Sequence record: OP172784
From: Escherichia phage ECO07P1
Reading direction: 5' to 3' (one strand)
Length of the DNA: 64,000 bases
Below are positions 28,178 to 49,048 of this stretch, in pieces. The notes beneath the pieces are model-generated. The model saw only the letters and a list, made by a program, of their open reading frames with translations. It did no database searches and was not told the origin of the DNA. Positions within the stretch are counted from its first letter, which is position 1. Each line of letters begins with the position of its first letter. The position numbers were made by a program, and so were the translations under genes.

Positions 28178-28207
28178 GTTTACATAGGGTTTTAGTTGTG
28201 ATACTAT
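28178..28207 (+). promoter_or_regulatory. T4-type early promoter
   Basis: GTTTAC-N18-TACTAT. Confidence 0.6.
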
Positions 28208-28235
28208 TACCCTATCAACTACTGAGGAGAATAAA

Positions 28236-31030: not shown

Positions 31031-31164
31031 GGTATCTAGGCCTTTCTGGACCTCTCTAAGAATCATTTAGTTTCTACCCTTTATAATATATTATCCTATC
31101 CTTTAATTGCCCCTCCCTGTCCTAGAATTCCCTAAAACTTTTTAAAAAATTTTTTCACAAAACT

Positions 31165-31194
31165 GTTTACATCCCCGTTCTTCCATGGTACTAT
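31165..31194 (+). promoter_or_regulatory. T4-type early promoter
   Basis: TTTTCACAAAACTGTTTAC-N18-TACTAT. Confidence 0.6.
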
Positions 31195-31238
31195 ACAACT
31201 ATCAACTACTGATACAGAAAAACAACTTGGAGAATGAA

Positions 31239-31502
31239 ATGGATAATTACGGCGAACTGTTCAACTTCTTTATGAAATGCGTTTCAGAAGATTTCGGTCG
31301 TACAGTGAATGATATTAAAGTCATCGGTCCTGACCATCCGATGTTTGAAACTTACGCAGTAATGGGTAATGAAGACGGTCAGTGGTATACTGTAAAAGTT
31401 GTGATTAATATGTTCACTGCTGAAGGTTATGTTAAACTGTCTTCTAAAGTTTACCACGATAACGATGAAATCGCAGAAGAATATTTCAATAATATGAAAT
31501 AA
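31239..31502 (+). CDS. hypothetical protein
   Basis: Start chosen at MDNYGELFNFF after GGAGAA Shine-Dalgarno; longer ORF start at 31185 lies inside the promoter. Confidence 0.55.
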   Translation: MDNYGELFNFFMKCVSEDFGRTVNDIKVIGPDHPMFETYAVMGNEDGQWYTVKVVINMFTAEGYVKLSSKVYHDNDEIAEEYFNNMK

Positions 31503-31570
31503 GTGTGTACAAACACCAAGGATGGTGTTATTATAGACTTATCAAAACAATCACAGAAGCGGAGAAATAA

Positions 31571-31747
31571 ATGACTACTTTAACTATTTGGTTTGACGAA
31601 AATGAAGAAACATACTGTGTGAACATTGATGAAAGTCCAATGCCAGAATTTGAATCTTCAGATAAAAACTCGGTTGTATCTTGGGCTGAAGGTTATAAAG
31701 CAGCAAAAGGCGATGTTGAAATAGTTTACAAACTATCCGGAGTATAA
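31571..31747 (+). CDS. hypothetical small protein (58 aa)
   Basis: ATG after GCGGAGAAATAA; MTTLTIWFDENEETYCVN...; below the ORF-track size cutoff. Confidence 0.4.
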   Translation: MTTLTIWFDENEETYCVNIDESPMPEFESSDKNSVVSWAEGYKAAKGDVEIVYKLSGV

Positions 31748-31790
31748 TACTCTCATGGATTTTAAATCTTAATTAACCTAAGGAAATACT

Positions 31791-32384
31791 ATGAACACAC
31801 TGAAGAAAATTGTTGATTTTATTCGCACTAAACTTGGTTCTGCAATGGCTAAAAATCTATCTGTTGAAGAACAGTATACTGCTGCAGCAGCAAAACTGCT
31901 TGATAAAATTAAAGACCTAAAAACTGCTTCTGTTAAATCTATTAATGAAGAAAAACGTATTCGTGAACTTATTGTTGAAAAGAATAAACAGGCTGAATCA
32001 AAAGAGCGTGAAATTCGCAAGCTTCTTTCCGAAGGTCAAGATGTAACAATGCATGCTAAACTTGGCTTGCTATATCGTCGAACAGCTGAACAGCTGACTA
32101 CTAAAGCTGATGGGTATGCTGAAATGCGAATTGAAATCGCCAAGAAAGTAGTTGAGTTAGATGATGCTCGTCAAGAACTTGCAGTTAAATTGGAATATAT
32201 CCGTGAAACTCGTGCGGCAAATGCCCTTGGAATTAGTACTGCTGATGATGTAGTTGAAATCGCAGCGCTAACTAAGGTTGATATTGAAGATACTCTTGCT
32301 CGAGTTGAAACCTTTAACGGTAATATTTCCGGGGTTGAAACCACCTCTGCCGATGTCCAGGAATATATTAATTCTCTGAAATAA
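31791..32384 (+). CDS. coiled-coil protein (possibly PspA/IM30-like)
   Basis: 197 aa predominantly helical, heptad-rich; followed by GGGGCTTCGGCCCC hairpin. Confidence 0.5.
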
Positions 32385-32389
32385 TGATA

Positions 32390-32405
32390 AGGGGCTTCGG
32401 CCCCT
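32390..32405 (+). terminator. terminator-like UUCG hairpin
   Basis: AGGGGCTTCGGCCCCT after the 31791 ORF; weak T-run. Confidence 0.45.
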
Positions 32406-32425
32406 ATTACTTGGAGTAAATAGGA

Positions 32426-33034
32426 ATGAAAATGCAAAGTGATTTCAATTCAATGTTTGAAGAGTTCCAAAGACAGGTTGATGTTCCAGACCAATTACTA
32501 AATGCTCTTAAACGTATGGCAGAAGGACGTAATTATTATTGGGGGTCTTCATATGAAACTGATGAAAGTCTTTCTGGAAGATTTTCTAGAGGTAAAAAGT
32601 CTTTAATACGTCCTGGAATACTCATTAAAAGTATTGAATCAATTCATTCATTGACGTGTGATTTTGATGTTGAATTTACTGATTTCATTTCTCCTGAATG
32701 GACAGTTTGTTATTTAAATGACGATTATGATTATCTTGGCGTTTATAGTTTAAGTGACGCATGGTTTAAACGTAATTTACAAAAGTCAAATTTGTTCTAT
32801 ATTGATACTACGGTAAAATTTCAGGGAAAGAAATATTTCTTTACTCTTATAGTTGACTCTGAAACAAAATATGAAAATAAGCGTATTCTTAGTAAAAAGA
32901 ATATCTTAACTATCGTTGATGATCTTTTTGATAAATTCGTGGAAAATCCTAATTTTGAAAGCGATTTATTATTAGAAAAATTTGTTAAGGAATGTAGAGA
33001 ATATGTCAAAGCCATCACTATACCTTCCAAGTAA
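32426..33034 (+). CDS. hypothetical protein, paralog family member 1 (soluble)
   Basis: 202 aa; C-terminal motif LLEKFVKECREYVK shared with the next three ORFs. Confidence 0.6.
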   Translation: MKMQSDFNSMFEEFQRQVDVPDQLLNALKRMAEGRNYYWGSSYETDESLSGRFSRGKKSLIRPGILIKSIESIHSLTCDFDVEFTDFISPEWTVCYLNDDYDYLGVYSLSDAWFKRNLQKSNLFYIDTTVKFQGKKYFFTLIVDSETKYENKRILSKKNILTIVDDLFDKFVENPNFESDLLLEKFVKECREYVKAITIPSK

Positions 33035-33395
33035 ACCTGTGAAGTATGAACTAAAGCGTCAGCTAATTCCTACTGATGTATTAATAGGTCCTGTGACAGC
33101 TATATCATTTGTAATTCTATTGATTGTTGGAATGGTTATAGACTTTATGACTGATATTGAATCTGGCGTAATATTTTTGTTAATATTAATTCTTCCATTA
33201 GTAGTTCCATTTTTATTGGTACCTGTAAATTGGGTAGGATATTGGTATCAAGGAAGGCATTATCGTAAACGTGTACGTGAATGGAAAGCTCAGTGTAAAA
33301 AGATTAAAAAGGAACACCAGCTTAAACTAAATATGTATGAATTTAATGAAATTATGAAATTTGTTAAGGAATCACGATGCAAAAGCCAAAACTAA
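33003..33395 (+). CDS. small two-TM membrane protein, paralog family member 2
   Basis: Two hydrophobic helices then basic tail ending FVKESRCK; start MSKPSLYL chosen. Confidence 0.55.
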   Translation: MSKPSLYLPSKPVKYELKRQLIPTDVLIGPVTAISFVILLIVGMVIDFMTDIESGVIFLLILILPLVVPFLLVPVNWVGYWYQGRHYRKRVREWKAQCKKIKKEHQLKLNMYEFNEIMKFVKESRCKSQN

Positions 33396-33751
33396 ATAAA
33401 GTCAAATATTCTTTTTCTGAGTCATTTTTAATTTTTGCTGTGGCGTTGGCTGCAGCTCTTGCTGGTAGTCTTATTGGATTAATGATTGACTGTATTATTT
33501 TAAACATCCGCAGTAACGTCAGCGGTATAGTAGATATAATAGAAGTTTGGAGTGAACTTCATTATACTATAGCAATTTCATTATTTTCATTCTTTAGTAT
33601 CATTTTATATTTTCATTATGATAATTTTAAAATAAATTGGCAAAGAAAAAAGGATTACAAAATACAATTAAAAGAATATAATAACTACATGTCTTATATT
33701 GAAAATGAATCAATGGAAGAGTTTGTGAGTGATTGCAGGAAAATCAAATGA
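33377..33751 (+). CDS. small two-TM membrane protein, paralog family member 3
   Basis: 124 aa; two hydrophobic helices; C-terminus EEFVSDCRKIK. Confidence 0.55.
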   Translation: MQKPKLNKVKYSFSESFLIFAVALAAALAGSLIGLMIDCIILNIRSNVSGIVDIIEVWSELHYTIAISLFSFFSIILYFHYDNFKINWQRKKDYKIQLKEYNNYMSYIENESMEEFVSDCRKIK

Positions 33752-34236
33752 TTTTAAAAACTCGCTGGTATGATTTAGATGACGGGGATGATGGCATTTC
33801 AGTTGATAGAGTTGACTGGAATGGCTGTTCCGAAGATATGAAAAATTTGCTGATTAGGGAGTTTAGAATGGGATATCAACCAGTTAAGCCATCTACTGCA
33901 ACAGATGATAAGTTTGTATGTATTCAAAATGGCCGCGCTAAGTTAACGAACGCTGATTGGTTCACAGATAAGAAGGTTATTCTGTGGTATATCATTAGTT
34001 TTCCTGTGACATCATTTGTATTTTGCTTCTTTGGAGAAAGTCCAGTAGGCAGAACGGGAGATTGGATTCTTTTAACCATACTTGTTAATATTTTTACAGC
34101 AGCAATATTATCTGGGATATGGTACATGTTCATTGAAATGCCATGGCGGTTACGTAGGCAGCAAAAGATTTTTGATGAAAAGAAATATACTCAAAATTTA
34201 AATAACTTTATCACTGAATGCAGGAAATTAAAATGA
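33748..34236 (+). CDS. two-TM membrane protein, paralog family member 4
   Basis: Start MILKTRWY at ATGA overlap; two hydrophobic helices; C-terminus NNFITECRKLK. Confidence 0.55.
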   Translation: MILKTRWYDLDDGDDGISVDRVDWNGCSEDMKNLLIREFRMGYQPVKPSTATDDKFVCIQNGRAKLTNADWFTDKKVILWYIISFPVTSFVFCFFGESPVGRTGDWILLTILVNIFTAAILSGIWYMFIEMPWRLRRQQKIFDEKKYTQNLNNFITECRKLK

Positions 34237-34673
34237 AAACATTATCAGCTGGTATTATCTTTATGACAGAAGATAAAGATTTATTTATGGGACGAGTTAC
34301 TGGTTCTCGTAAGCCCGGAATGATGGCACATCGCTGGGATATTCCAAAGGGCCGCGTAGAAAGTTTTGATTTGAATGCACTGGAAGCTGCAAAAAGAGAA
34401 TGCTCAGAAGAGACTGGTTTTAGCAATTATAATCCAGACCTTCTAGAAGACCTAGGTGTATTTAAATATTCTAGTAATAAAGACTTACAGTTATTTTATT
34501 ATACGATTCCAGTAGAGCATGAGATGTTTAGAAATTGCCATTGCGAGTCTTATTTTGAAAATAAAGATGGCGTTATGATTCCAGAGATGGATGCTTTTGC
34601 TCTTATTCCTCGTACTCAGTGGCAATATGTGATGGGTCCTTCACTTTACCGAATAATGAACAACCTCTTTTAA
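34233..34673 (+). CDS. nudE: Nudix hydrolase
   Basis: Nudix box GRVESFDLNALEAAKRECSEETGF; upstream of e as in T4; alternative start at 34218. Confidence 0.75.
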   Translation: MKTLSAGIIFMTEDKDLFMGRVTGSRKPGMMAHRWDIPKGRVESFDLNALEAAKRECSEETGFSNYNPDLLEDLGVFKYSSNKDLQLFYYTIPVEHEMFRNCHCESYFENKDGVMIPEMDAFALIPRTQWQYVMGPSLYRIMNNLF

Positions 34674-35476
<803 letters not shown>

Positions 35477-35477
35477 T

Positions 35478-35507
35478 GTTTACTTCCTCCAAGGACTTTG
35501 ATACTAT
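35478..35507 (+). promoter_or_regulatory. T4-type early promoter (denV)
   Basis: GTTTAC-N18-TACTAT. Confidence 0.6.
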
Positions 35508-35534
35508 ACATTCATCAACTACTTGGAGGAAATT

Positions 35535-35948
35535 ATGACTCGTATCAATTTAACACTTGTTTCTGAACTGACCGACCAACATCTTATGGCTGAGTATCGT
35601 GAATTACCACGCGTATTTGGTGCAGTCCGTAAACATGTTCAAAACGGTAAACGTGTAAAGGATTTTAAAATCTCTCCAACATTTATCTTAGGCACAGGTC
35701 ACGTAACATTCTTTTACGACAAACTCGAATTTTTACGTTTACGTCAAATCGAGCTAATCGCTGAATGCTTGAAACGTGGTTTCAAAATCAAGGACACGAC
35801 TGTCCAGGATATTTCCGACATCCCTGTCGAATTTCGTAATAATTATGTCCCGTCCGAAGCGTCCATTGCGATAAGTCAAGCTCGCTTAGATGAAAAAATT
35901 GCTCAACGCCCTACTTGGTACAAATACTATGGTAAATCAATTTACTAA
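35535..35948 (+). CDS. denV: endonuclease V, pyrimidine-dimer DNA glycosylase
   Basis: [35 protein letters not shown]..., near-identical to T4 DenV; early promoter upstream. Confidence 0.92.
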
Positions 35949-35954
35949 GGAAAA

Positions 35955-36213
35955 ATGAAAATGTATCAAGAATTTATCGCTGAAGCAGATGCCAAAGGCC
36001 CCAAATTTAAAGTTAAAGCTTTCGTTGGTGATGCGGAAGACTTTGGCTCATTAAAACGTAATGGGTATTTTTCCTAGGCGGCGATGGTAGAGAAATAAAC
36101 ACCTATGCAAAACGTAGTGAATTGCTTATGTTGCTGCAAGTCCTAAAGTAGATGTTGACGATATTGGATACGATTTTAACAACTTCGGAATTATTTCTGG
36201 CGGTGAAGCTTAA
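35955..36213 (+). pseudogene. decayed internal-protein gene remnant
   Basis: Starts MKMYQEFIAEADAKGP (CTS-like), stops after 40 codons; remaining sequence has short ORFs in other frames. Confidence 0.45.
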
Positions 36214-36216
36214 ACG

Positions 36217-36246
36217 GTTTACGCTTAAGTATTAATATGGTATAAT
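36217..36246 (+). promoter_or_regulatory. T4-type early promoter (ipIII-like)
   Basis: GTTTAC-N18-TATAAT. Confidence 0.6.
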
Positions 36247-36276
36247 TACTCTATCAAAACAAACAAGGAAACAAAA

Positions 36277-36855
36277 ATGAAAACGTATAAAGAATTTATT
36301 GCTGAAGCTTCTGTGGAAAAGGCCAAAGGCATTAATAAGGACGAGTGGAACTATCGTGGTGGAAACGGCTTTGACCCTAAAACTGCTCCACTTGAACGAT
36401 ATCTAGCCACAAAAGCTTCTGACTTTAAAGCTTTCGCTTGGGAAGGACTTCGCTGGCGTACCGATCTAAATATTGAAGTTGATGGGCTTAAATTTGGCCA
36501 TATTCAAGATGTTGTTGCTAGTAACTTGGATGCAGCTTTTGTTAAAGCTGACGGTGACCTTCGTCGCTGGAATTTAAAACTATTCTCTAAACAGAAAGGC
36601 CCGGTGTTTGTGCCTAAAGCTGGTAAATGGGTTATTGATAATAAATTAGCTAAGGCTGTCAACTACGCTGGTCTTGAATTCGCCAAGCACAAATCATCAT
36701 GGAAAGGTCTGGATGCAATGGCTTTCCGTAAAGAATTTGCTGATGTTATGGCTAAAGGCGGCTTTAAGGCAGAAATAGATACCTCTAAAGGTACGTTTAA
36801 GGACGCTAATGTTCAGTACGCTTATGCCGTTGCTAACGCAGCCCGTGGTAATTAA
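36277..36855 (+). CDS. ipIII: internal protein III-like
   Basis: 192 aa; MKTYKEFIAE-A CTS; length and N-terminus match T4 IPIII from memory. Confidence 0.7.
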   Translation: MKTYKEFIAEASVEKAKGINKDEWNYRGGNGFDPKTAPLERYLATKASDFKAFAWEGLRWRTDLNIEVDGLKFGHIQDVVASNLDAAFVKADGDLRRWNLKLFSKQKGPVFVPKAGKWVIDNKLAKAVNYAGLEFAKHKSSWKGLDAMAFRKEFADVMAKGGFKAEIDTSKGTFKDANVQYAYAVANAARGN

Positions 36856-36896
36856 TAAGGCCGATACTTAGGCTTATTTACATTTAAAGGAAACAT

Positions 36897-37199
36897 ATGA
36901 AAACATATCAAGAATTTATTACTGAAGCTCGAGTGAGTGCAGGTAAATTAGAATCCGCTATAAATAAAAAGGCCCATTCATTTCATGATTTGTCCGATAA
37001 AGACCGTAAGAAACTTATAAGCCTTTATATTGACAAAGAGCGTATTCTCGCTCTTCCTGGCGCTAATGAAGGTAAACAGGCCAAGCCTTTGAATGCTGTC
37101 GAAAAGAAAATTGATAACTTTGCTTCTAAATTCGGTATGTCTATGGATGACCTTCAGCAAGCGGCTATCGAAGCAGCTAAAGTAATTAAAGGTAAATAA
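36897..37199 (+). CDS. ipII: internal protein II-like
   Basis: 100 aa; MKTYQEFITE-A CTS; length matches T4 IPII. Confidence 0.65.
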   Translation: MKTYQEFITEARVSAGKLESAINKKAHSFHDLSDKDRKKLISLYIDKERILALPGANEGKQAKPLNAVEKKIDNFASKFGMSMDDLQQAAIEAAKVIKGK

Positions 37200-37342
37200 C
37201 ATGGGAACAACCTGGACCTCATGATTCTATGAGGGATTCCCGCCAACCTGTAATAAGGGTCGAGCCCAAGTGCGGTAATGGGTAAACACAGAAATGGACA
37301 ATTCATGCGCCACGGAATGGCCCAACCTAAAAGAGAAACTAA

Positions 37343-37882
37343 ATGAGAACATTTTTAACTGGTCCTTATCTATCCCTGATGAATGCTTTTACACACCATT
37401 CTGATGCTAGAGTAGAAGAAATTTGTAAGAATGATTATGTCCCACCATTTGAAGACTTACTCAAACAGTATTGCACACTTCGACTAGATGGTGGACGTCA
37501 ATCCGGTAAATCAACTGCAGTAACTAATTTTGCCGCTAATTGGTTGTATGATGGCGGAACAGTTATTGTTCTTTCTAATACTTCAGCTTACGCTAAAATT
37601 TCTGCAAATAACATTAAAAAGGAATTTTCGCGTTATTCTAATGATGATATACGTTTTCGTTTATTTACTGATTCTGTCCGTAGTTTTATCGGTAATAAAG
37701 GAAGCAAGTTCAGAGGTTTATCGCTTTCGCGGATTTTGTATATAATCGATGAGCCTGTTAAATCTCCTGATATGGATAAAATTTACGATATTCATATTGA
37801 AACTGTGCACCACTGTTGCAATAGTAAATGCTGCATTGGTGGTATTATTCGTCCACAGTTTTTCATAATCGGAATGCAATGA
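37343..37882 (+). CDS. small P-loop NTPase-like protein
   Basis: Walker A-like DGGRQSGKST and Walker B-like ILYIIDEP; C-terminal Cys cluster. Confidence 0.5.
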   Translation: MRTFLTGPYLSLMNAFTHHSDARVEEICKNDYVPPFEDLLKQYCTLRLDGGRQSGKSTAVTNFAANWLYDGGTVIVLSNTSAYAKISANNIKKEFSRYSNDDIRFRLFTDSVRSFIGNKGSKFRGLSLSRILYIIDEPVKSPDMDKIYDIHIETVHHCCNSKCCIGGIIRPQFFIIGMQ

Positions 37883-38061
37883 TGACAGACACGCAACTTT
37901 TCGAATATCTTTATTTTTCGCCAAAAACTGTTAAAAATAAATTGGTGAATCATTTTGAAATTTTGGCAAATAACAACGTCTTGAGCGAATTTTATCCTAA
38001 GCAATACAAATTACAAAAAAGGCGTATTCAAAGGATGCAGAGTTTTGTGCACTGCTCCTAA
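37879..38061 (+). CDS. hypothetical small protein
   Basis: ATGATGA overlap with upstream stop; about 60 aa. Confidence 0.4.
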   Translation: MMTDTQLFEYLYFSPKTVKNKLVNHFEILANNNVLSEFYPKQYKLQKRRIQRMQSFVHCS

Positions 38062-38217
38062 TGCAAGATTAATGAATAAAATTCCATATTTTACCATGGA
38101 ATTTATTGATGGGCCTTTTAAAGGACTAATCACGCAGAGTTTAATGGCATATGATTCTGAGCCATTTTTAATTAAAGAACAATCTTGGATAAATTTATTT
38201 TCTAATTGAGAGGTTAT

Positions 38218-39060: not shown

Positions 39061-39338
39061 TGGCTCAATTAAGCGCAGGGTTTGGTTATGAGTATTATAC
39101 TGCCCCTCGTCGTGTATCTGTTGCTCCTAAGAAAATTCAAAGTCTTGATGACTTCCAGGAAGTAGTTCGTAACGCTTTCCAGGACTATGCACGTTATCTT
39201 AAAGAAGATTCACAGGACTGTCTCGAAGAAGATGAAATTGCTTACTATGAGCAGCGTCTTGAACAGCTTAAAAACCTACATGAGGTTCGTGCAGAAGTTA
39301 CAAAGTCTATGAATAAATTGATTAGATTTAAAGAATAA
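39060..39338 (+). CDS. hypothetical acidic protein
   Basis: Start [13 protein letters not shown] at TAATGG overlap; 92 aa. Confidence 0.5.
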
Positions 39339-39340
39339 CT

Positions 39341-39370
39341 GTTTACTTTTCCTCTTGACTGTGGTATAAT
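39341..39370 (+). promoter_or_regulatory. T4-type early promoter (regB)
   Basis: GTTTAC-N18-TATAAT preceded by TGG. Confidence 0.65.
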
Positions 39371-39397
39371 TTTTCTATCAGTTAAGAGGAGAATAAC

Positions 39398-39859
39398 ATG
39401 ACTATCAACACAGAAGTTTTTATCCGTCGAAATAAGCTCCGTCGTCACTTTGAGTCGGAGTTTCGTCAAATTAACAATGAGATTCGTGAGGCATCAAAAG
39501 CAACAGGAGTCTCATCGTTTCATCTAAAATATTCTCAGCATCTTCTTGATCGTGCAATTCAGCGGGAGATTGATGAGACATATGTTTTTGAATTATTCCA
39601 CAAAATAAAAGACCATGTTTTAGAAGTTAATGAATTCCTGAGTATGCCTCCACGCCCTGATATTGACGAAGATTTTATTGATGGTGTTGAATATCGTCCT
39701 GGACGTTTAGAAATCACAGATGGAAATCTTTGGCTTGGATTTACAGTTTGTAAACCTAATGCGAAGTTCAAAGACCCGTCGCTTCAATGTAGGATGGCAA
39801 TTATCAACAGTCGTCGTTTACCAGGAAAGGCTTCTAAAGCAGTAATTAAAACTCAATGA
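39398..39859 (+). CDS. regB: RegB site-specific endoribonuclease
   Basis: 153 aa; MTINTEVFIRRNKLRRHFESEFRQINNEIREASKA..., near-identical to T4 RegB; early promoter upstream. Confidence 0.9.
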   Translation: MTINTEVFIRRNKLRRHFESEFRQINNEIREASKATGVSSFHLKYSQHLLDRAIQREIDETYVFELFHKIKDHVLEVNEFLSMPPRPDIDEDFIDGVEYRPGRLEITDGNLWLGFTVCKPNAKFKDPSLQCRMAIINSRRLPGKASKAVIKTQ

Positions 39860-39866
39860 GGTAAGC

Positions 39867-41773: not shown

Positions 41774-41774
41774 G

Positions 41775-42356
41775 ATGGCGAGTTTAATTTTTACTTATGC
41801 AGCAATGAATGCTGGAAAATCTGCTTCTCTTTTGACTGCTGCGCATAATTATAAAGAACGTGGAATGAGTGTATTAGTTCTTAAGCCTGCTATTGATACT
41901 CGCGATTCTGTCTGTGAAGTCGTTTCTCGCATTGGAATTAAGCAGGAAGCGAATATTATTACGGATGATATGGATATTTTTGAGTTCTATAAATGGGCTG
42001 AAGCACAAAAAGATATTCATTGCGTATTTGTAGATGAAGCCCAATTTTTAAAAACTGAACAGGTGCATCAATTAAGTCGAATTGTTGATACATATAATGT
42101 TCCTGTTATGGCTTATGGTCTAAGGACTGATTTCGCTGGAAAATTATTTGAAGGTTCTAAGGAACTTTTGGCGATTGCAGATAAACTTATTGAACTGAAG
42201 GCAGTTTGTCATTGCGGTAAAAAAGCGATTATGACAGCTCGATTAATGGAAGATGGAACACCAGTTAAAGAAGGTAATCAAATCTGTATTGGTGATGAAA
42301 TTTATGTTTCTTTGTGTAGAAAACATTGGAACGAATTAACTAAAAAGCTCGGTTAG
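41775..42356 (+). CDS. tk: thymidine kinase
   Basis: 193 aa as T4 Tk; P-loop NAGKSAS; C-terminal CHCGKKA...CIGDE zinc motif. Confidence 0.9.
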   Translation: MASLIFTYAAMNAGKSASLLTAAHNYKERGMSVLVLKPAIDTRDSVCEVVSRIGIKQEANIITDDMDIFEFYKWAEAQKDIHCVFVDEAQFLKTEQVHQLSRIVDTYNVPVMAYGLRTDFAGKLFEGSKELLAIADKLIELKAVCHCGKKAIMTARLMEDGTPVKEGNQICIGDEIYVSLCRKHWNELTKKLG

Positions 42357-42398
42357 TGCAAAAGTTATAAATAGGTTTATCTAACTAAAGGGGTATAT

Positions 42399-42611
42399 AT
42401 GCTACAATTAACTGAAAAGCAACTTCGCAATCTTACTGTTCTTCAATTAGATGAAATTCGTAGGGAAGTTGGAAATATCATTTCAGCTTTGCGTCGAGAA
42501 GTATCGCTCAACCAATCTCCGGCAGACTATACTAGATTGCGAAATTTTGAAAAATACCTTGATAAAGTTAAGGCCGTACATCGGCATAAAGTAAATACAG
42601 GACAAAAATGA
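42399..42611 (+). CDS. hypothetical protein (rI.1 position)
   Basis: 70 aa between tk and rI. Confidence 0.5.
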
Positions 42612-42623
42612 TAGGAGGCCTTT

Positions 42624-42917
42624 ATGGCCTTAAAAGCAGCGGCACTATTCGCCATGCTAGGATTAGCGTTTGTTTTATCTCCGCCGATTGAAGCGAATGT
42701 CGATCCTCATTTTGATAAATTTATGGAATCTGGTATTAGACATGTTTATACGCTTTTTGAAAATAAAAGCGTAGAATCATCTAAACAGTTCTATAGTTTC
42801 ATGCGAACGACCTATAAAAATGACCCGTGTTCTTCTGATTTTGAATGTATAGAACGAGGCGCGGAGATGGCACAATCATACGCTAGAATTATGAACATTA
42901 AATTGGAGACTGAATGA
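42624..42917 (+). CDS. rI: lysis inhibition regulator rI
   Basis: 97 aa; MALKAAALFAMLGLAFVLSPPIEANVDPHFDKFMESGIRHVY matches T4 RI. Confidence 0.88.
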   Translation: MALKAAALFAMLGLAFVLSPPIEANVDPHFDKFMESGIRHVYTLFENKSVESSKQFYSFMRTTYKNDPCSSDFECIERGAEMAQSYARIMNIKLETE

Positions 42918-43300
42918 AATTCAGCGACTTTTCACAAAGTGGAAAACCTTCAAAGGCAGATGAATACTTAGGTTTATTAATGGCTGCGCAAGCTTATTTT
43001 CATTCTGCGCATTTTGAAACTAAAAGTTATGCTAGACACAAAGCATACGATTTTATTTTTTCCGAGTTGCCAGATTTGATTGATAAATTTGGTGAGCAAT
43101 ATTTGGGGTATTCTGGTAGAAAATACACACCTTCAATTCCAGATGCTAGTAAACTTCCTACCGACACAATTAAAATGATTGATCGTATACTAGACCAATC
43201 TAACAGCATTTACAAAGAAATGCCTCCAGCCATTCAAAGCACGATAGATGATATTACTGGAATGTTTTATCAAAGTAAGTATCTTCTTTCCCTCGAATAA
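42914..43300 (+). CDS. hypothetical protein (rI.-1 position)
   Basis: 128 aa; overlap with rI stop; terminator follows. Confidence 0.55.
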
Positions 43301-43304
43301 CATT

Positions 43305-43328
43305 AGTCTCCTTCGGGAGACTTTTTTC
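43305..43328 (+). terminator. rho-independent terminator
   Basis: AGTCTCCTTCGGGAGACT then TTTTTT. Confidence 0.7.
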
Positions 43329-43337
43329 ATTTTACCG

Positions 43338-43367
43338 GTTTACTTTCCATTTGAGCTGTGATACTAT
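43338..43367 (+). promoter_or_regulatory. T4-type early promoter
   Basis: GTTTAC-N18-TACTAT. Confidence 0.6.
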
Positions 43368-43395
43368 ACAACCATCGGATAAAGAGGAGAACATC

Positions 43396-43584
43396 ATGAA
43401 AATTGAAGCACTTAATCAAGAAGGAAATATCTACGTCATCATTAATGGTGATTTTTTCGTCGACATGGATGAAGTTACCAGTGAAGAGCTTGTAGAACTT
43501 CTTAAGAAACGTTATGATATGTGTGATGAAGCTGCAACTCATATGGCGTGTGCAATGTTCTCTCTTTCATATGTGGTGGAATAA
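43396..43584 (+). CDS. hypothetical small protein
   Basis: Start MKIEALNQ after AAGAGGAG Shine-Dalgarno; early promoter upstream. Confidence 0.5.
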
Positions 43585-43787
43585 TGATTAGTATAGAACA
43601 AGCAGATAAAATTAAAGAATTGATAGCTTTAATTCGCAAAGCAGACGAGGAACTTAGTGACTTTGCTTGGTTTTCGGCAGGCATTGCAAATAAAGGCGCT
43701 GAAGAACTTGAAGCTAAAGTTGATAATGCTGTAGAAGCTTTAGATATGTTTCTTGATGAAATTATCGATCACAATACGAGAGTTTAA
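43584..43787 (+). CDS. hypothetical acidic small protein
   Basis: TAATG overlap start [13 protein letters not shown]. Confidence 0.5.
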   Translation: MISIEQADKIKELIALIRKADEELSDFAWFSAGIANKGAEELEAKVDNAVEALDMFLDEIIDHNTRV

Positions 43788-43789
43788 GT

Positions 43790-43984
43790 ATGCTAACACG
43801 TGAACAGTTTGAAAAAATCATTAAATTAGCACGTGATATTGAAATAGATTCATACCAATTGGCAGTTGAGCATTGTGAAGGATATTCATACGATGGTATA
43901 GAAGCGGCTAAAAAGGATTTGGATAAATCCAAAGCTAAGTTAGTTCAATATCTTGAAATGATTAGGTGGAATAATGAAAACTGA
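43790..43984 (+). CDS. hypothetical small protein
   Basis: 64 aa; compact operon spacing. Confidence 0.5.
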   Translation: MLTREQFEKIIKLARDIEIDSYQLAVEHCEGYSYDGIEAAKKDLDKSKAKLVQYLEMIRWNNEN

Positions 43985-44147
43985 AAAGCAGATGTTTTTA
44001 ATGAAGCTAATTGAAGAATATGCTAATGCAGTTTCTGACTACGATTATTCTTCTCGTGAAAGAGGTACAGCTTTCGCAAAGGAAGAAATGAAAATCATGG
44101 TTGATGCTCACACAAAACTCCAGAATTTTATTGAAAACGTCATTTAA
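43974..44147 (+). CDS. hypothetical small protein (57 aa)
   Basis: ATG overlapping upstream stop; MKTEKQMFLMKLIEEYANAV...; below ORF-track cutoff. Confidence 0.4.
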   Translation: MKTEKQMFLMKLIEEYANAVSDYDYSSRERGTAFAKEEMKIMVDAHTKLQNFIENVI

Positions 44148-44149
44148 CG

Positions 44150-44179
44150 GTTTATAAGTTGGCAAGGTTATGGTATAGT
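44150..44179 (+). promoter_or_regulatory. T4-type early promoter variant, -10 inside a palindrome
   Basis: GTTTAT-N18-TATAGT; -10 lies in the loop of inverted repeat GTTGGCAAG...CTTGCCAAC. Confidence 0.45.
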
Positions 44180-44207
44180 AATCTTGCCAACTGCCAGGGA
44201 GAAGAGA

Positions 44208-44312
44208 ATGAAAGTTTTGTTTGTTGTGTATGTGATGATTCAATATTATCATCCGATGTTTACTTATAATCTGGTGAACAACATTATTGATATTATTCAA
44301 AGGAGTATGTAA
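44208..44312 (+). CDS. hypothetical hydrophobic peptide (34 aa)
   Basis: GGGAGAAG Shine-Dalgarno then MKVLFVVYVMIQYYHPMF...; downstream of early promoter at 44150. Confidence 0.3.
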   Translation: MKVLFVVYVMIQYYHPMFTYNLVNNIIDIIQRSM

Positions 44313-44314
44313 TT

Positions 44315-44872
44315 GTGAGTGAGTCGAAGAGAATCAATATGAAACGATTAGTATTAGAAGTTAGTCCGCTTTTTGGTGAATTGGCTATAGAAAAAGTAAA
44401 TAACATGTATCGTTTGACGCAAGAAGACGATATGCTATATTTTACGCCTAGTGAAATCATTCATTTAACCCAAATTGAAAATCCTTATACTGATAAAATT
44501 GTAAGCATTAATGATGAGCATAAAATTCATTTTTATTCTTTATGCCCAGGATTTAATATTGAAAGCGAGTCAATATGCTTATCAATTAATAATTGGGATA
44601 ATTTTATAACTTACATTAAATATTTTTATTATTCTAATGAAAGAAAACATAGTTTAAAATGGCTTAAAAATTGCAATGCTATTATTACTAACGCTTGCGA
44701 TCAGAATGATGAAACTGTTTTAAGTGTATCAAAATGTTATGAAGAAGGAGATGTCTTAACTATTCGTCAAATTGATGATTTTCGAGCGCATATTGTCACA
44801 TTTACCAAAGATGAAGCTATTGCGTTAAAGACTTATCTTGATTCTGTCATTCCAACTATGATTTCAAAGTGA
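44315..44872 (+). CDS. hypothetical protein, tandem paralog A
   Basis: 185 aa (GTG start after AGGAG; alternative ATG at 44339); shares GFNIE and C-terminal motifs with the next ORF. Confidence 0.55.
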   Translation: MSESKRINMKRLVLEVSPLFGELAIEKVNNMYRLTQEDDMLYFTPSEIIHLTQIENPYTDKIVSINDEHKIHFYSLCPGFNIESESICLSINNWDNFITYIKYFYYSNERKHSLKWLKNCNAIITNACDQNDETVLSVSKCYEEGDVLTIRQIDDFRAHIVTFTKDEAIALKTYLDSVIPTMISK

Positions 44873-45402
44873 GGAAATATGTGTTTATTTCAAGTGAAAG
44901 CGGTTTAATTCGTGTTGAATTTAAAAATGACATCTTCCTTATTCAAGGAGATGATATTATTAAAATGAGTTATGACGAAATCAAGAAAATTTGCCGTGCT
45001 CTTGAAAGTCATGGAAAAGTAAATGCTACTATCGATATAGGTGATTTATGGGTGACACTTTATGAAGTATCCGAAGGATTTAACATTGAAGATGAAAACA
45101 ACATCTTAGCTATTGATAAAAGAAGTGATTTGTTTGATGTGTTAAAAGTTTATGAACAGTCAAACGGTGGAAGAAAAGCTGCATTGATTTATCAAAAACC
45201 ACATTCATGTGGAACTGCTTCAATCATTTCAAATATTGAAGATGAAACTGATACTTATATGTGTGTTTTAAAGGCTGGCGGTGATCGTCATCCGGATTTT
45301 ATTTCTATTCGTCAAAACAATGGAGAAATTTCATTATCAAAATCAGAAGCTGAAGCTATGATTAAGTATTTAACAACTGTTACACCTTCAATGAAAGGAT
45401 AG
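44869..45402 (+). CDS. hypothetical protein, tandem paralog B
   Basis: 177 aa; shares GFNIEDEN and SEAEAMIKYLTTVTPSM with paralog A. Confidence 0.55.
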   Translation: MRKYVFISSESGLIRVEFKNDIFLIQGDDIIKMSYDEIKKICRALESHGKVNATIDIGDLWVTLYEVSEGFNIEDENNILAIDKRSDLFDVLKVYEQSNGGRKAALIYQKPHSCGTASIISNIEDETDTYMCVLKAGGDRHPDFISIRQNNGEISLSKSEAEAMIKYLTTVTPSMKG

Positions 45403-45404
45403 TT

Positions 45405-45866
45405 ATGATTATTAATGAAAGCTCTTGGCACTATAAATTATTCAAAATGTTTAATGATGAATGGAAACGACCTAAGACACTGTGCGCGTATTTTTGGTCT
45501 ATTGTTATTCCTACATTTTTCGTTTCTTTTTTCGGATGTACTATACTCGCAGGTCTAACTATCATCTGCGCAGAAATTATGCAGAAATGGCTTATTTTTG
45601 GTAGTTTATGGACTCTTATTCCATCAGCATTTATACTTGCCATTTTGCTTGTTTTACTTATTATTGGTTCATTTGTTATTCCTGCACAACTGCGTGAAAA
45701 ATATAAAGATTATAAATGGAAAAAGGATTATGCTTTACATGTAGAAAATATTGATAGGGCGTATAAAGGTTTACCTCCTATTCAACCCAAGAAATCTATT
45801 ATCGTCGAATTTTTAAAAACGCGTAAAGCTAAAGTATGTCCTGTTATTGAATATAAGGCTGAATGA
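45405..45866 (+). CDS. two-TM membrane protein
   Basis: 153 aa with two long hydrophobic segments and basic C-terminus. Confidence 0.55.
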   Translation: MIINESSWHYKLFKMFNDEWKRPKTLCAYFWSIVIPTFFVSFFGCTILAGLTIICAEIMQKWLIFGSLWTLIPSAFILAILLVLLIIGSFVIPAQLREKYKDYKWKKDYALHVENIDRAYKGLPPIQPKKSIIVEFLKTRKAKVCPVIEYKAE

Positions 45867-46876
45867 TGAAAACTGTAGTTAAGTCTTATTTTGGTAGTCA
45901 TCTTTATGGAACTTCTACTCCAGAATCTGATGTAGATTTTAAAGAAATCTTTGTTCCTCCTGCTCGCGATATTCTTATCGGAAATGTTAAAGAGCATATG
46001 AGTAAAAATACTAACAACACATCATCTAAAAACACTAAAGATGATATTGACCATGAACTATACAGTCTTAAGTATTTCTTTAAATTAGCAACAGATGGTG
46101 AAACCGTAGCATTGGATATGCTCCACACTCCACCTGAACTGGTAGTTAAATCTGATTTGCCTGATGTATGGAAGTTTATTCAAGACAATCGTTCTCGTTT
46201 TTATACGACTAACATGAAATCCTATTTAGGATATGTCCGCAAGCAAGCTTCTAAATATGGTGTTAAGGGTTCTCGTTTGGCCGCATTACGTGATGTATTG
46301 AAAGTAGTTAATCAAATCCCCGATCAGTGGGTTGATTACCGAGAAGATGGAACACAAGGACAACGTCGTACTAAAATTGCAGATATTAAGCATCGTCTTC
46401 CAGAAAACGAGTTCTGCGAATGGGTATTCCATAATCATGAGAAAACGGGCCCGCAAACGTTCTATACTGTGTTGGGTCGTAAATATCAAACAACGCTTTC
46501 TCTTATTGAGCTTAAGCAGTCTTTGAATAAACTTGATGCTGAATATGGTGAACGTGCTCGTAAAGCTGAAGCTAATGAGGGCATTGACTGGAAAGCACTG
46601 AGTCATGCTTGCCGAGGTGGACTCCAACTATTGGAAATTTACAAAACTGGTGACTTAGTCTATCCACTCCAAGACGCTCCATTTATTCTCGACGTGAAGT
46701 TGGGTAAACATCCATTTAAAACTGTTCAAGAGTTTTTGGAAGATGTGGTCGATCAAGTAGAAGCAGCATCCATTGAAGCTTCTAAGAACGGTATGCAGCA
46801 AAAAGTAGACATGGGTTTCTGGGATGACTTCCTTGAGAGGGTTTATCTTGAAAACCACCGAAGTTATTATAAATGA
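45863..46876 (+). CDS. nucleotidyltransferase-fold protein (Pol-beta-like)
   Basis: 337 aa; N-terminal GS...DxD signature GSHLYGTSTPESDVDF; terminator follows. Confidence 0.55.
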   Translation: MMKTVVKSYFGSHLYGTSTPESDVDFKEIFVPPARDILIGNVKEHMSKNTNNTSSKNTKDDIDHELYSLKYFFKLATDGETVALDMLHTPPELVVKSDLPDVWKFIQDNRSRFYTTNMKSYLGYVRKQASKYGVKGSRLAALRDVLKVVNQIPDQWVDYREDGTQGQRRTKIADIKHRLPENEFCEWVFHNHEKTGPQTFYTVLGRKYQTTLSLIELKQSLNKLDAEYGERARKAEANEGIDWKALSHACRGGLQLLEIYKTGDLVYPLQDAPFILDVKLGKHPFKTVQEFLEDVVDQVEAASIEASKNGMQQKVDMGFWDDFLERVYLENHRSYYK

Positions 46877-46878
46877 TA

Positions 46879-46902
46879 GGGAGCCTTCGGGCTCCCTTTT
46901 TT
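46879..46902 (+). terminator. rho-independent terminator
   Basis: GGGAGCCTTCGGGCTCCC then TTTTTT. Confidence 0.75.
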
Positions 46903-46925
46903 GTTTAAAATGACGTCACAAAGTT

Positions 46926-46955
46926 GTTTACTTCTATCGCAAAGCATATTATAAT
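46926..46955 (+). promoter_or_regulatory. T4-type early promoter
   Basis: CACAAAGTTGTTTAC-N18-TATAAT. Confidence 0.65.
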
Positions 46956-47001
46956 ATATGTGTAGTTAATTAATTGCTCTTTAAAAATTGAGGAGAATAC
47001 A

Positions 47002-47487
47002 ATGCATATTTTAATGCAATGCCTTGGCAACAAAATTAATGATTTTAATCATAAGCGTGTTAATGATTACATTAAAGACAAACTTGAGATTAAAGACATA
47101 CTTTTTAGAGGACTTACAATAGAGGAAGTGCTATCTTATAAGTTTGAAGTTAATAGGAGAATCAAATTTAAAAGAATAACTTCCTTTAGCAGTGAGTCTC
47201 ATATAGCTGAAACGTTTGCTGCAGAACGCTATATGACTAATATTTTAGTAGTGTTAAAAAATGCAAACGTTTTTGACTATTCGACTGCTATGATTGACAT
47301 TTTAGAAAATTTAATCGCAATTGAAGAATCTGGCCAAACTGACGATGATAAGCTTAACAAGCTTTATGATAATCTTTGCATGGTAGATTATGAAAGAGAG
47401 TTTTTACTGCCAATTAATTCTGAGTTAATAGTTAAAAACATATATTTTGATAGCAAAAAGAACATGCATATAGTAGAAATGGAATAA
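47002..47487 (+). CDS. hypothetical protein, stand-alone early unit
   Basis: 161 aa between its own promoter and terminator; weak FRG / SFS / ERE pattern reminiscent of ADP-ribosyltransferases, speculative. Confidence 0.5.
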   Translation: MHILMQCLGNKINDFNHKRVNDYIKDKLEIKDILFRGLTIEEVLSYKFEVNRRIKFKRITSFSSESHIAETFAAERYMTNILVVLKNANVFDYSTAMIDILENLIAIEESGQTDDDKLNKLYDNLCMVDYEREFLLPINSELIVKNIYFDSKKNMHIVEME

Positions 47488-47498
47488 ATCAACACAAA

Positions 47499-47522
47499 GG
47501 GGACCCTAGAGGTCCCCTTTTT
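47499..47522 (+). terminator. rho-independent terminator
   Basis: GGGGACCCTAGAGGTCCCC then TTTTT. Confidence 0.75.
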
Positions 47523-47548
47523 ATTTCAAAAAATTTTTTCACAAAACG

Positions 47549-47578
47549 GTTTACAAGCATAAAGCTTTATGGTACTAT
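47549..47578 (+). promoter_or_regulatory. T4-type early promoter
   Basis: TTTTCACAAAACGGTTTAC-N18-TACTAT. Confidence 0.65.
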
Positions 47579-47615
47579 ACAACTATCAACTACTGATACA
47601 GATTTGGAGAATAAA

Positions 47616-48584
47616 ATGAAAACTGTAACTATCAATAAGGGTATCTACTTCGGTAAAGAAATCTCTGGAACTTTTGAGCTCTTAGGCGAATGGTTCCCAG
47701 ATAATGCTCCGGTAGATGCACAAGGAGATGGTAAAGTTTTTGTTGAAATTGACGGTAAACGTCGCGGTGTTTGGGTTTACAAATCAGATATTTCATATGA
47801 TGGTGTAAAAGTTGAAGAAGTTAAAGAATCATATGAAGATATGAAAACCCGCATTAATAAAAGATTTAATGTTATGGGAATGATGACGAATGGTATTATT
47901 AATGGAAATATTCGTTCATTAATTATCTCTGGCGCAGCAGGTATTGGTAAAACGTATTCTTTAGATAAAGCTTTAAATAAAGCAAATGATAATGGATACA
48001 TTGAATATAAAAGCATTAATGGTAAAATCTCTGGTATTGGTCTTTATGAGCAGCTTTGGAATAATCGTGAAGAGAACTCTGTCCTTTTGATTGATGATGT
48101 GGATGTTTTCTCTGATATGGACATTCTTAATCTTCTAAAAGCTGCTCTGGACACTGGAGAGACCCGTAAAGTCTGCTGGAGCACTGCATCTTCTTACTTA
48201 GAAGAAAAAGGCATTGACCGTGAGTTTGAATTTAAAGGAACGATTGTTTTTATCACAAACGTTGACATTGACCGCGAATTAGACCGTGGTACTAAACTTG
48301 CTCCACACTTACAAGCATTGGTGTCCCGCTCAGTTTATTTGGATTTGGGTGTTCACACTAATGAAGAAATTATGGTCAGGGTTGAAGATGTTATTCTTTC
48401 AACTGACATGATGCAAAAGCGCGGTCTTTCTGATGAAGAAACTTATAAAGCATTATCATGGATGAAAGTCAATGTTAATCGTTTACGCAATGTTTCACTG
48501 CGTACTGCTCTTTATCTTGCTGACTTTATTATGACCGACAAAAACGGTTGGGAAGAAATTGCTGAGGTTACTCTTCTGAAATAA
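47616..48584 (+). CDS. P-loop ATPase
   Basis: Start MKTVTINKG after GGAGAA; Walker A GAAGIGKT, Walker B LLIDDVD. Confidence 0.6.
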   Translation: MKTVTINKGIYFGKEISGTFELLGEWFPDNAPVDAQGDGKVFVEIDGKRRGVWVYKSDISYDGVKVEEVKESYEDMKTRINKRFNVMGMMTNGIINGNIRSLIISGAAGIGKTYSLDKALNKANDNGYIEYKSINGKISGIGLYEQLWNNREENSVLLIDDVDVFSDMDILNLLKAALDTGETRKVCWSTASSYLEEKGIDREFEFKGTIVFITNVDIDRELDRGTKLAPHLQALVSRSVYLDLGVHTNEEIMVRVEDVILSTDMMQKRGLSDEETYKALSWMKVNVNRLRNVSLRTALYLADFIMTDKNGWEEIAEVTLLK

Positions 48585-48685
48585 TTCATAAGAGGACTTC
48601 TATGACAAAAAGGCAGTTCAGAAATAGATTATATGGACTGCCATCAAAAAGATGACTAGAATTAAACTGGTGAATGGAGGTAGTG

Positions 48686-48988
48686 ATGTTATACTCAAAG
48701 GCTCGTGAAATTTACGAAACTAAGATTAAAGAAGCTGTATTTCAATTCGCAACGACAATGCGATGGACAAATGACTGGGAGTATTCAAAAAATCATAAGA
48801 AGCCCATGGTGACAAGAAAGGCTCATATGTTAGTGTTAATAGACCGTGAGCAGATTAAAGCCCGAGAAGCCCTCCAGAATCATAAAAAGGCTGCCTTTGA
48901 ATGGTTTATGGATAACACTGCTCCTGAGACTAAGAAAGCAGTGAGCGCATGGTTCAGTGGAAAAAATTGTGAAAGAAGTTTCTTTTAG
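48686..48988 (+). CDS. hypothetical basic protein
   Basis: Start MLYSKAREIY after GGAGG Shine-Dalgarno. Confidence 0.5.
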   Translation: MLYSKAREIYETKIKEAVFQFATTMRWTNDWEYSKNHKKPMVTRKAHMLVLIDREQIKAREALQNHKKAAFEWFMDNTAPETKKAVSAWFSGKNCERSFF

Positions 48989-48990
48989 TG

Positions 48991-49020
48991 GTTTACAAGA
49001 CTGTTCCTCTGTGGTACTAT
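48991..49020 (+). promoter_or_regulatory. T4-type early promoter
   Basis: GTTTAC-N18-TACTAT. Confidence 0.6.
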
Positions 49021-49048
49021 ACAACTATCAACTACGGAGGAACAGAAA

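Follow-up and report, generated by a model that had tools for sequence, protein, structure and literature searches.

The consensus of the early promoters of phage T4 reportedly goes back to Liebig and Rueger in 1989, and tables of these promoters to Miller and coworkers in 2003. They have been described as "uber" promoters, in which an UP element, a −35 box, a TGn extension and a −10 box are accompanied by further consensus regions (Hinton 2010, PMC2988021), and the T4 regB gene is said to have "a typical early promoter" (PMC3014915). T4-type phages also carry promoter-early stem-loops (PeSLs), which are mobile regulatory cassettes (Arbiol et al. 2010, PMC2839356; Comeau et al. 2014, PMC4122927) with the consensus TTTACW-N17-TAYWAT for the T4/PST pair (PMC4122927), and conserved promoter/leader elements occur at the internal-protein (IP) loci of T-even phages (Repoila et al. 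1994, to the extent that it is discussed in PMC2839356 and PMC4122927). Here we analyze a 64,000-nucleotide stretch of Escherichia phage ECO07P1 (record OP172784; this whole stretch is called the window below), in which near-identical promoter and leader blocks recur at distant loci. An initial annotation had read these blocks as PeSL-like modules.

Our results indicate that the repeats are very likely sigma-70-dependent T4-type early promoters plus the short 5' leaders of their early genes and the regions where translation of these begins. Since early promoters and PeSLs have both been published for T4-type phages, including the T4/PST pair, this finding is already known; it adds no new biology, and recovers the T4 early promoter/leader consensus and the PeSL idea from raw sequence. 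For annotation it marks 16–17 early transcription units.

The early-promoter family and its leaders

A 23-mer (GGTACTATACAACTATCAACTAC) occurs exactly, on the + strand, at 31187-31209, 47571-47593 and 49013-49035, and a 21-mer (GTGATACTATTACCCTATCAA) occurs exactly on the same strand at 27192, 27912 and 28198, so that both the recurrence at three distant loci and the threefold second variant were read correctly from the start. Every one of these six copies has a GTTTAC hexamer 18 nt upstream. The longest exact runs measure 44 nt (27912-27955 and 28198-28241, reaching into the first codons), 34 nt (31185-31218 and 47569-47602) and 32 nt (27181-27212 and 28187-28218), and the run common to the 31185/47569 pair and 49012-49035 is 24 nt. 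The proposed block length of roughly 35 nt therefore holds for the 31185/47569 pair but not for 49012, while all shared runs (24–44 nt) exceed the 20-nt threshold of the repeat-length check.

Searching for the wider pattern GTTTAC-N18-TAYWAT retrieved 16 exact matches between 27172 and 59139, all on the + strand, where 0.06 were expected, and a GTGTAC variant of the same promoter lies at 31505. The two triplets are thus the most alike members of a larger family rather than isolated sets. Chance or low-complexity matching in AT-rich DNA could be invoked, as the window has only about 35% G+C, yet it is virtually impossible to reconcile with the data: neither the 23-mer nor the 21-mer appeared in 100 dinucleotide-preserving shuffles, and the family consensus is both strongly over-represented and confined to one strand. 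We regard this explanation as refuted by the shuffles and the consensus count.

In the following, each promoter is denoted by the position of its −35 box, and the promoters that carry the 23-mer (31165, 47549 and 48991, upstream of e.8, nrdC.10 and nrdC.8, respectively) are called the focal copies. Fifteen family copies are each followed, 55–80 nt further on, by an ORF start that has a Shine-Dalgarno (SD) sequence, and together these copies give the consensus ..tTtt.a.AAAa.t GTTTAC.t.....t.....TgTGgTAcTAT ..a.cTATCAA.tac... Conservation among the 15 copies is uneven, with a mean pairwise identity of 0.98 in the −35 hexamer, 0.78 in the extended −10 and 0.45 in the start region, as against 0.31 in the spacer and 0.36 in the UP element (the upstream 30 nt). 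The UP element is A/T-rich (AAAA..TTTTCACAAA) and precedes GTTTAC; one version of it, AAAAAATTTTTTCACAAAAC, is common to 31165 and 47549. The extended −10 follows the pattern TG-G/A-TA-C/T-T/A-AT, and in 13 of the 16 copies, including all six repeat copies, the TG precedes the −10 at a distance of one base (it is missing at 46926, 54343 and 59139). Downstream of the −10 comes a conserved start-site block, ..CTATCAA.., followed 20–45 nt later by the Shine-Dalgarno sequence. The distance from TTTAC- to the −10 TAnnAT is 17 nt, the spacing of sigma-70 promoters. The repeated block, which had been taken as a −10 box, leader and ribosome-binding-site lead-in behind a GTTTAC −35 box, fits the anatomy of T4-type early promoters in each of these parts, and the "promoter-leader module" is a stack of known signals.

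The setting of the family agrees with this assignment. The best matches of a 20-kb query were Tequatrovirus genomes (T4-like coliphages) at 95–97% identity, out of 987 phage records matched, and by these matches the window is Tequatrovirus genome DNA. Its gene order parallels T4 in reverse orientation: late genes occupy the − strand to about 23.7 kb, and from there the + strand carries 2, 3, 1, 57A/B, the ipI locus, the tRNA cluster, e.8-e.2, nudE, e, denV, the ipIII/ipII locus, vs.x, regB, tk, rI, mobD.x, nrdC.11 to nrdC, pin, 49 and nrdD. Because this is the T4 order reversed, the + strand from 27 kb onward corresponds to the early-gene strand of T4 (the T4 minus strand). As in T4, the promoters share the early strand with the early genes and directly precede them; they have the GTTTAC −35, the TGn-extended −10, the A/T-rich UP element and the extra conserved positions, and every family copy except 46926 has a near-identical T4 counterpart at the orthologous locus. 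Orthologs of the copies, each retaining a spacer of its own, also occur in phages EP01, PaulHMueller and W143. The regB promoter (39341) is identical to that of T4 and is annotated as a promoter in the record of phage DalCa. Two differences from T4 were seen, namely the extra promoter 46926, which accompanies an inserted ADP-ribosylase-like gene, and the location of the denV promoter at another locus. Every testable sequence feature of T4 early promoters is present, and we see no difference of substance between these and the family described here.

Several points weigh against this assignment. Promoter activity is deduced from the consensus and from orthology to T4; the consensus matches at 54343 and 59139 fall inside ORFs; and generic sigma-70 scans of this AT-rich DNA gave 64 and 103 sites compared with 62 and 85.5 in shuffles, the first of these showing no enrichment. 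The case therefore depends on the T4-specific consensus.

If the family does consist of early promoters, published T4 biology implies that host RNA polymerase would fire them immediately after infection, ribosomes would bind the leaders, and the RegB endonuclease would later cut the Shine-Dalgarno sequence, silencing the early mRNAs. The copies would be alike since all these signals would be under the same strong selection; segments without a shared signal, such as 14 nt inside the spacer, differ from copy to copy and are conserved among orthologs.

The RegB step is suggested by the leaders themselves. RegB, with S1, cleaves at GGAGRAYARAA, and an efficient 11-nt site of T4 early mRNA is GGAGAAUAAAA (Durand et al. 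2006, PMC1702504). The module Shine-Dalgarno sequence GGAGAATAAAATG has 8 occurrences at up to 1 mismatch in the window, where 0.3 were expected, and each of them lies at a module; the exact form GGAGAATAAAA is found at 27228, 27940, 28226 and 47606, with four further copies one base off. This sequence matches the published site GGAGAAUAAAA, so that the modules carry a predicted RegB/S1 cleavage site overlapping the Shine-Dalgarno. Among the focal copies the match is exact at 47549 and has one mismatch at 31165; the nrdC.8 sequence at 48991 differs from the published site (GGAGGAACAGA).

Since the conserved block downstream of the −10 (ACAACTATCAACTAC.../CTATCAACTAC) is itself transcribed, beginning about 7 nt after the −10, and runs on into the RegB/S1 site described in PMC1702504, it might act mainly as RNA rather than as promoter DNA, for example as a leader signal that serves translation, recruits S1/RegB or governs mRNA decay. 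By prediction, the leaders made from the promoters at 47549 and 31165 lack structure (z = +0.36 and −1.5), as RegB requires. We nevertheless consider this unlikely, because the best-conserved part, CTATCAA at +1 to +9, adjoins the −10, where the start-site and initial-transcribed sequence affects promoter escape; because the distance from the block to the Shine-Dalgarno sequence varies from 3 to 25 nt, a poor fit to a fixed RNA signal; and because no Rfam family matched at the modules, the only matches in the window being 10 tRNAs. The conserved stem-loop that had been sought in the leaders did not materialize either: the short leaders transcribed from the promoters themselves share no common hairpin, and those of 47549, 36217, 43338, 46926 and 58700 are no more structured than shuffled sequences (z from −0.2 to +0.4). 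All significant structures have the untranscribed spacer as one arm.

Module copying, breakpoints and accessory cassettes

The promoters of e.8, nrdC.10 and nrdC.8 are found at the same loci in T4, EP01, PaulHMueller and W143, each with its copy-specific spacer and upstream sequence, and the spacer identity between the focal paralogs is 0.21–0.57. The three focal copies therefore predate the divergence of these phages, and recent duplication as the sole cause of their identity is ruled out by the copy-specific spacers in T4 and the three other phages. These comparisons point to shared function, rather than recent duplication, as what keeps the focal copies alike. A 201-nt query around 48991 matched 2269 places in 754 phage records, about three per genome, and a multi-copy block is thus general in the group.

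Copying of modules was seen beyond the window. An exact search of IMG/VR retrieved 12 stretches in a handful of T4-like contigs and, counting the copies in the window, the block precedes at least six different genes (e.8, nrdC.10, nrdC.8 and three further ORFs). In one of these cases an ORF starting MSKVTYIIKASN occupies the nrdC.10 position behind the same terminator, UP element and −35. In another (L014/L016) an ORF starting MKIVMGCLAV lies behind a chimera of e.8-type upstream sequence and nrdC.10-type leader. In the third, contig 2974742932 carries as a fourth copy the complete nrdC.8 module, from −35 to Shine-Dalgarno and with the same spacer, before an unrelated membrane-protein ORF (MKKIIKAIWNV) between denB and ndd, with rIIB, denB and ndd ORFs recognized around it; PeSL-mediated exchange between T4 and PST has been published for this denB-ndd region (PMC4122927).

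These cases show that copying and recombination of modules do occur; they speak for the initial reading of the blocks, and they lend some weight to the idea that the near-identity itself comes from copying, with a mobile or gene-converting cassette pasted recently before different genes and concerted evolution keeping the copies alike. The transplanted nrdC.8 module with its spacer, the L014/L016 chimera and the 44 exact nt shared by 27912 and 28198 into the first codons all speak for it. We consider it somewhat unlikely as the general explanation, given that each focal copy has a spacer and upstream sequence of its own, the same at the same locus in all four phages, and that the paralogous spacers are as dissimilar as stated above.

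The relation of the early-promoter modules to gene-content breakpoints was examined using chained blastn alignments of the window against these four comparator genomes. Fifteen modules between 27 and 60 kb were considered, each reckoned from 60 nt upstream of the −35 to 35 nt beyond the ATG. The modules make up 7.2% of the region and contain 11 of its 42 unique breakpoints (binomial p = 1.4e-4); 9 of the 15 coincided with a breakpoint. Promoter-bearing junctions had breakpoints more frequently than promoterless ones (9/15 vs 16/57; Fisher p = 0.024). The postulated link between modules and gene-content breakpoints thus holds for 9 of the 15 modules and for all three copies of the second variant.

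Two observations argue against a recombination role of the promoters as such. By our own count, promoterless junctions with a gap of at least 40 bp have breakpoints at about the same rate (10/18), and against the four comparator genomes no breakpoint fell at the focal copies 31165 and 48991, leaving 47549 as the only focal copy with one. The notion of promoters as special recombination hot spots is thereby weakened, the enrichment being largely gone when they are set against other intergenic gaps of at least 40 bp. Many breakpoints are tied to homing-endonuclease genes (segB, mobD, mobC, I-TevII, the nrdD intron, and a W143 insertion at 48565-48600), and others lie at terminator hairpins (30346 and 31006). 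A sound statement is that the cassettes are bounded by regulatory punctuation, of which early promoters are one major kind without being uniquely recombinogenic; breakpoints show a preference for intergenic punctuation as a whole rather than for promoters specifically.

The designation "PeSL-like" likewise applies in part. The T4/PST consensus fits, the locations are hyperplastic (the IP locus, the tRNA-e region, mobD-nrdC and 55.x-nrdH, all variable between relatives), and the composite of terminator stem-loop, early promoter and Shine-Dalgarno sequence is found at 43305, 46878 and 47496, with a cassette between two such elements that is absent from close relatives. A stem-loop directly upstream of the promoter is present in 3 of 15 cases (43338, 46926 and 47549). 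Unlike PeSLs, most promoters here lack one, including 31165 (the nearest, 31006-31024, is 140 nt away), 48991 and the IP-locus promoters. Under the published PeSL model, homology patches of 25–45 nt and the neighboring terminator stem-loops would act as crossover points, and recombination there would insert, delete or swap accessory-gene cassettes; two elements recombining with each other would release mini-circles.

The clearest case lies between nrdC.11 and nrdC.10, where the window has an ORF of 161 aa that matches PHROG 832, RNA polymerase ADP-ribosylase (Alt/ModA/ModB-like), with no Pfam match. The gene is absent from T4 and PaulHMueller; 43 phage records, including one of T2, contain it, compared with 742 that have the neighboring nrdC.11. 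T4 and PaulHMueller have a single hybrid nrdC.11/nrdC.10 junction in place of the cassette. The left half of this junction, comprising the first terminator with its T-run and the start of the UP element, matches window 46878-46931, and its right half matches the window from 47514 onward; the insert between these points (46931-47514) holds a promoter spacer, the 161-aa gene, the second terminator and a second UP/−35. On the T4/PaulHMueller side the two alignment blocks overlap by 38–40 bp, which is a signature of recombination between direct repeats. By its layout the 161-aa gene is a textbook PeSL cassette (compare PMC2839356 and PMC4122927), and the suggested shuffling of cassettes by recombination at the modules is supported here by a gene enclosed between two stem-loop and promoter repeats, with the caveats given above. 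A Mod/Alt-like ADP-ribosylase gene is thereby marked as a promoter-bounded accessory cassette, present in about 6% of relatives.

Other module-associated events are swaps across the ipI locus (27259-28195) and at ipIII (36253-36306), the replacement of e.7 starting at 31504, and the absence of nrdC.4. This gene (about 1 kb) is present in T4, EP01, PaulHMueller and W143 and missing here (window 52032-52958); the junction falls in the shared leader and first codons (CTACTGAGGAGATTAATATGACTCGTAA) after 51974, and the flanking alignments overlap by 17–39 nt, which suggests a deletion between repeated gene starts.

The second-variant promoters (27172-28178) and 36217 belong to two IP loci and precede ORFs with the N-terminus MKTYQEFIAEA, and the ipI and ipIII crossovers fall either in the promoter or in this repeated N-terminal coding block. 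In these respects they resemble the T-even IP-locus elements, and no difference from them was seen. Eight ORFs of the window begin with the same block of roughly 11 codons, MKT[YF][QK]EFI.EA (27238, 27571, 27950, 30434, 35195, 35955, 36277 and 36897), which we take to be the N-terminal sequence that targets T-even internal proteins to the capsid. At 35955-36077 the block heads a truncated ORF of 40 aa, and several breakpoints lie at the end of the 11-codon block.

Two further rearrangements were observed. A 187-aa ORF (30434-30997; PHROG 2280, of unknown function), whose N-terminus MKTYAEFLTEA resembles that of internal proteins, forms a cassette (30346-31006) inserted just after the terminator at 30316-30339 and absent from T4 and W143. 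It begins exactly after GGGGCTTTTT of one terminator and ends with AGGGCTTTTT of another, and the two hairpins share GGGCTTTTT. The denV gene (window 35478-35948) lies between e and ipIII here, in W143 and in PaulHMueller; in T4 it follows ipII and precedes vs.8. At the T4-type position (reverse-complement coordinate 12623) W143 has a remnant promoter followed by codons 1–3 of denV (MTR) and a stop codon, a footprint of denV cassette relocation.

Early promoters within predicted Shine-Dalgarno-pairing hairpins

At nrdC.8, regB and denV, the 18-nt spacer between the −35 and −10 boxes is the reverse complement of the Shine-Dalgarno region of the gene's own leader. Folds of the interval that starts at the −35 and ends shortly after the ATG gave hairpins of −25.5 kcal/mol (z = −6.0) for nrdC.8 (48991; 49001-49044), −22.4 kcal/mol (z = −4.9) for regB (39341; 39347-39393) and −17.8 kcal/mol (z = −4.2) for denV (35478; 35484-35531). 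Cognate spacer/SD duplexes reach −18.7 to −23.8 kcal/mol, compared with about −9.5 for non-cognate pairs (permutation p = 0.002 among the 15 promoters).

The pairing recurs in other genera with changed arms. For regB, the arms are CCUCUUGACUG / CAGUUAAGAGG in Tequatrovirus, UUCUCCUCUAGUUG / CAACUAGAGGAGAA in Mosigvirus LNA2 (−21.6 kcal/mol, z = −4.3) and AUCCUCAUUUGUU / AACAAAUGAGGAU in Winklervirus LC53 (−22.8 kcal/mol, z = −6.9). The covariation was assessed by folding each sequence, in place of RNAalifold on a MAFFT alignment, which under-counts it because indels misalign the arms. The nrdC.8 helix is also found in Dhakavirus with the arms UCUCCAGUAG / CUACUGGAGG (−19.5 kcal/mol, z = −4.2); Mosigvirus G2469 lacks it. 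The T4 denV promoter, at its other locus, has the different arms UCUCCUGUAG / CUACAGGAGA with the pairing kept (−18 kcal/mol, z = −3.4). Compensatory changes thus keep the pairing of regB (Tequatrovirus, Mosigvirus and Winklervirus) and of nrdC.8 (Tequatrovirus and Dhakavirus), and that of denV in two versions of its promoter.

The gene's own promoter starts transcription downstream of the 5' arm, so the helix can form only in RNA read through from upstream. Tentatively, the regB, denV and nrdC.8 promoters may therefore be built into an RNA hairpin in such a way that only proximal early transcripts expose the ribosome-binding site, whereas read-through RNA stays silent and protected from RegB. 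For regB, the exposed ribosome-binding site would also be the RegB site, and expression of the three genes would be coupled to the few minutes of early-promoter activity.

In T4, late promoters embedded in hairpins control translation of e, soc, 49 and I-TevI (PMC3014915). As in these genes, the predicted helix sequesters the Shine-Dalgarno sequence in upstream transcripts, and proximal transcripts are without the 5' arm. The embedded promoter here differs in being early, not late (TATAAATA), with its own −35/−10 spacer as the 5' arm, so that by analogy the arrangement would be a variant of the known one and not a member of it. A review of T4 post-transcriptional control (PMC3014915) does not list regB, denV or nrdC.8 among its hairpin-gated cases. 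The hairpins are the only part of our results that may be new, and older literature might already describe them; if new, early promoters in SD-sequestering hairpins would carry a classic device of T4 regulation over from late genes to immediate-early ones.

A different inverted repeat surrounds the −10 at IP-locus promoters (window 27903-27930, GATAGGGTA..TACCCTATC), with the Shine-Dalgarno sequence outside the repeat. The T4 ipI promoter has the repeat GATGAGGTA..TACCTCATC, which differs by two compensatory pairs, and an analogous repeat is seen at Mosigvirus nrdC.8.

Module coordinates and neighboring features

Coordinates of the promoter modules and of the accessory gene in the window.
Feature	Position	Strand	Details
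first IP (ipI) locus ORF, promoter/leader	27130..27240	+	−35 27172; SD GGAGAATAAAA; ATG 27238; MKTFKEFINEA N-terminus; breakpoint 27259-27273
second IP locus ORF, promoter/leader	27470..27573	+	−35 27511; ATG 27571; breakpoints 27511, 27602 vs EP01
third IP locus ORF, promoter/leader	27850..27952	+	−35 27892; ATG 27950; inverted repeat GATAGGGTA/TACCCTATC around −10; fold −16.4 kcal/mol, z −2.1
trna.4, promoter/leader	28140..28238	+	−35 28178; ATG 28236; breakpoint 28173-28195
e.8, promoter/leader	31120..31241	+	UP AAAAAATTTTTTCACAAAAC; −35 31165; TGn-extended −10 TGGTACTAT ending 31194; SD GGAGAATGAAA; ATG 31239
variant promoter	31465..31573	+	GTGTAC 31505; −10 TATTAT; precedes 58-aa ORF in place of T4 e.7; breakpoint 31504 vs T4
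denV, promoter/leader	35440..35537	+	−35 35478; ATG 35535; spacer TTCCTCCAAG complementary to SD region CTTGGAGGAA
ipIII, promoter/leader	36180..36279	+	−35 36217; ATG 36277; breakpoints 36253-36306
regB, promoter/leader	39300..39400	+	−35 39341; SD GGAGAATAACA; ATG 39398; spacer complementary to SD region
mobD.5, terminator stem-loop and promoter/leader	43305..43398	+	stem-loop 43305-43322; −35 43338; ATG 43396
161-aa cassette gene, terminator and promoter (left boundary)	46878..47004	+	stem-loop 46878-46897 (GGGAGCC-TTCG-GGCTCCC and T-run); −35 46926; ATG 47002
accessory 161-aa Mod/Alt-like RNA polymerase ADP-ribosylase gene	47002..47487	+	PHROG 832, E 1.8e-23
nrdC.10, terminator and promoter/leader (right cassette boundary)	47496..47618	+	stem-loop 47496-47520 (GGGGACC-CTAGA-GGTCCCC and T-run); −35 47549; SD GGAGAATAAAA; ATG 47616
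nrdC.8, promoter/leader	48950..49051	+	−35 48991; ATG 49049; spacer CTGTTCCTCTGTGG complementary to SD region CTACGGAGGAACAG
promoter/leader upstream of nrdC.3	51935..52034	+	−35 51974; ATG 52032; nrdC.4 junction
consensus promoter upstream of pin	54300..54415	+	−35 54343; at end of preceding ORF
55.6-like ORF, promoter/leader	58660..58762	+	−35 58700; ATG 58760; stem-loop 58606-58620, about 80 nt upstream
consensus match inside ORF	59100..59170	+	−35 59139; conserved in T4

The ORF downstream of 31165 belongs to PHROG 2678; its ortholog is annotated e.8 in phage Shfl2, and the orthologous promoter of T4 carries a spacer of the same type. Pfam gave no matches for the ORFs behind the focal promoters, or sub-threshold AAA/STAND matches in the case of nrdC.10, and the PHROG assignments of the ORFs after the focal promoters read "unknown function", the 161-aa ORF being the exception.

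An intergenic stretch of 143 nt after ipII (37200-37343; ..GGGATTCCCGCCAACCTGTAATAAGGGTCGAGCCCAAGTGCGGTAATGGGTAAACAC..) contains no consensus promoter and has no Rfam match at the gathering threshold; its G+C content is unusually high for this genome. The tRNA cluster consists of 10 tandem tRNA genes (28806-29634, Rfam), and the T4 record annotates eight. A 116-aa ORF (29654-30004) adjoins the cluster downstream; T4 has segB inside its tRNA cluster.

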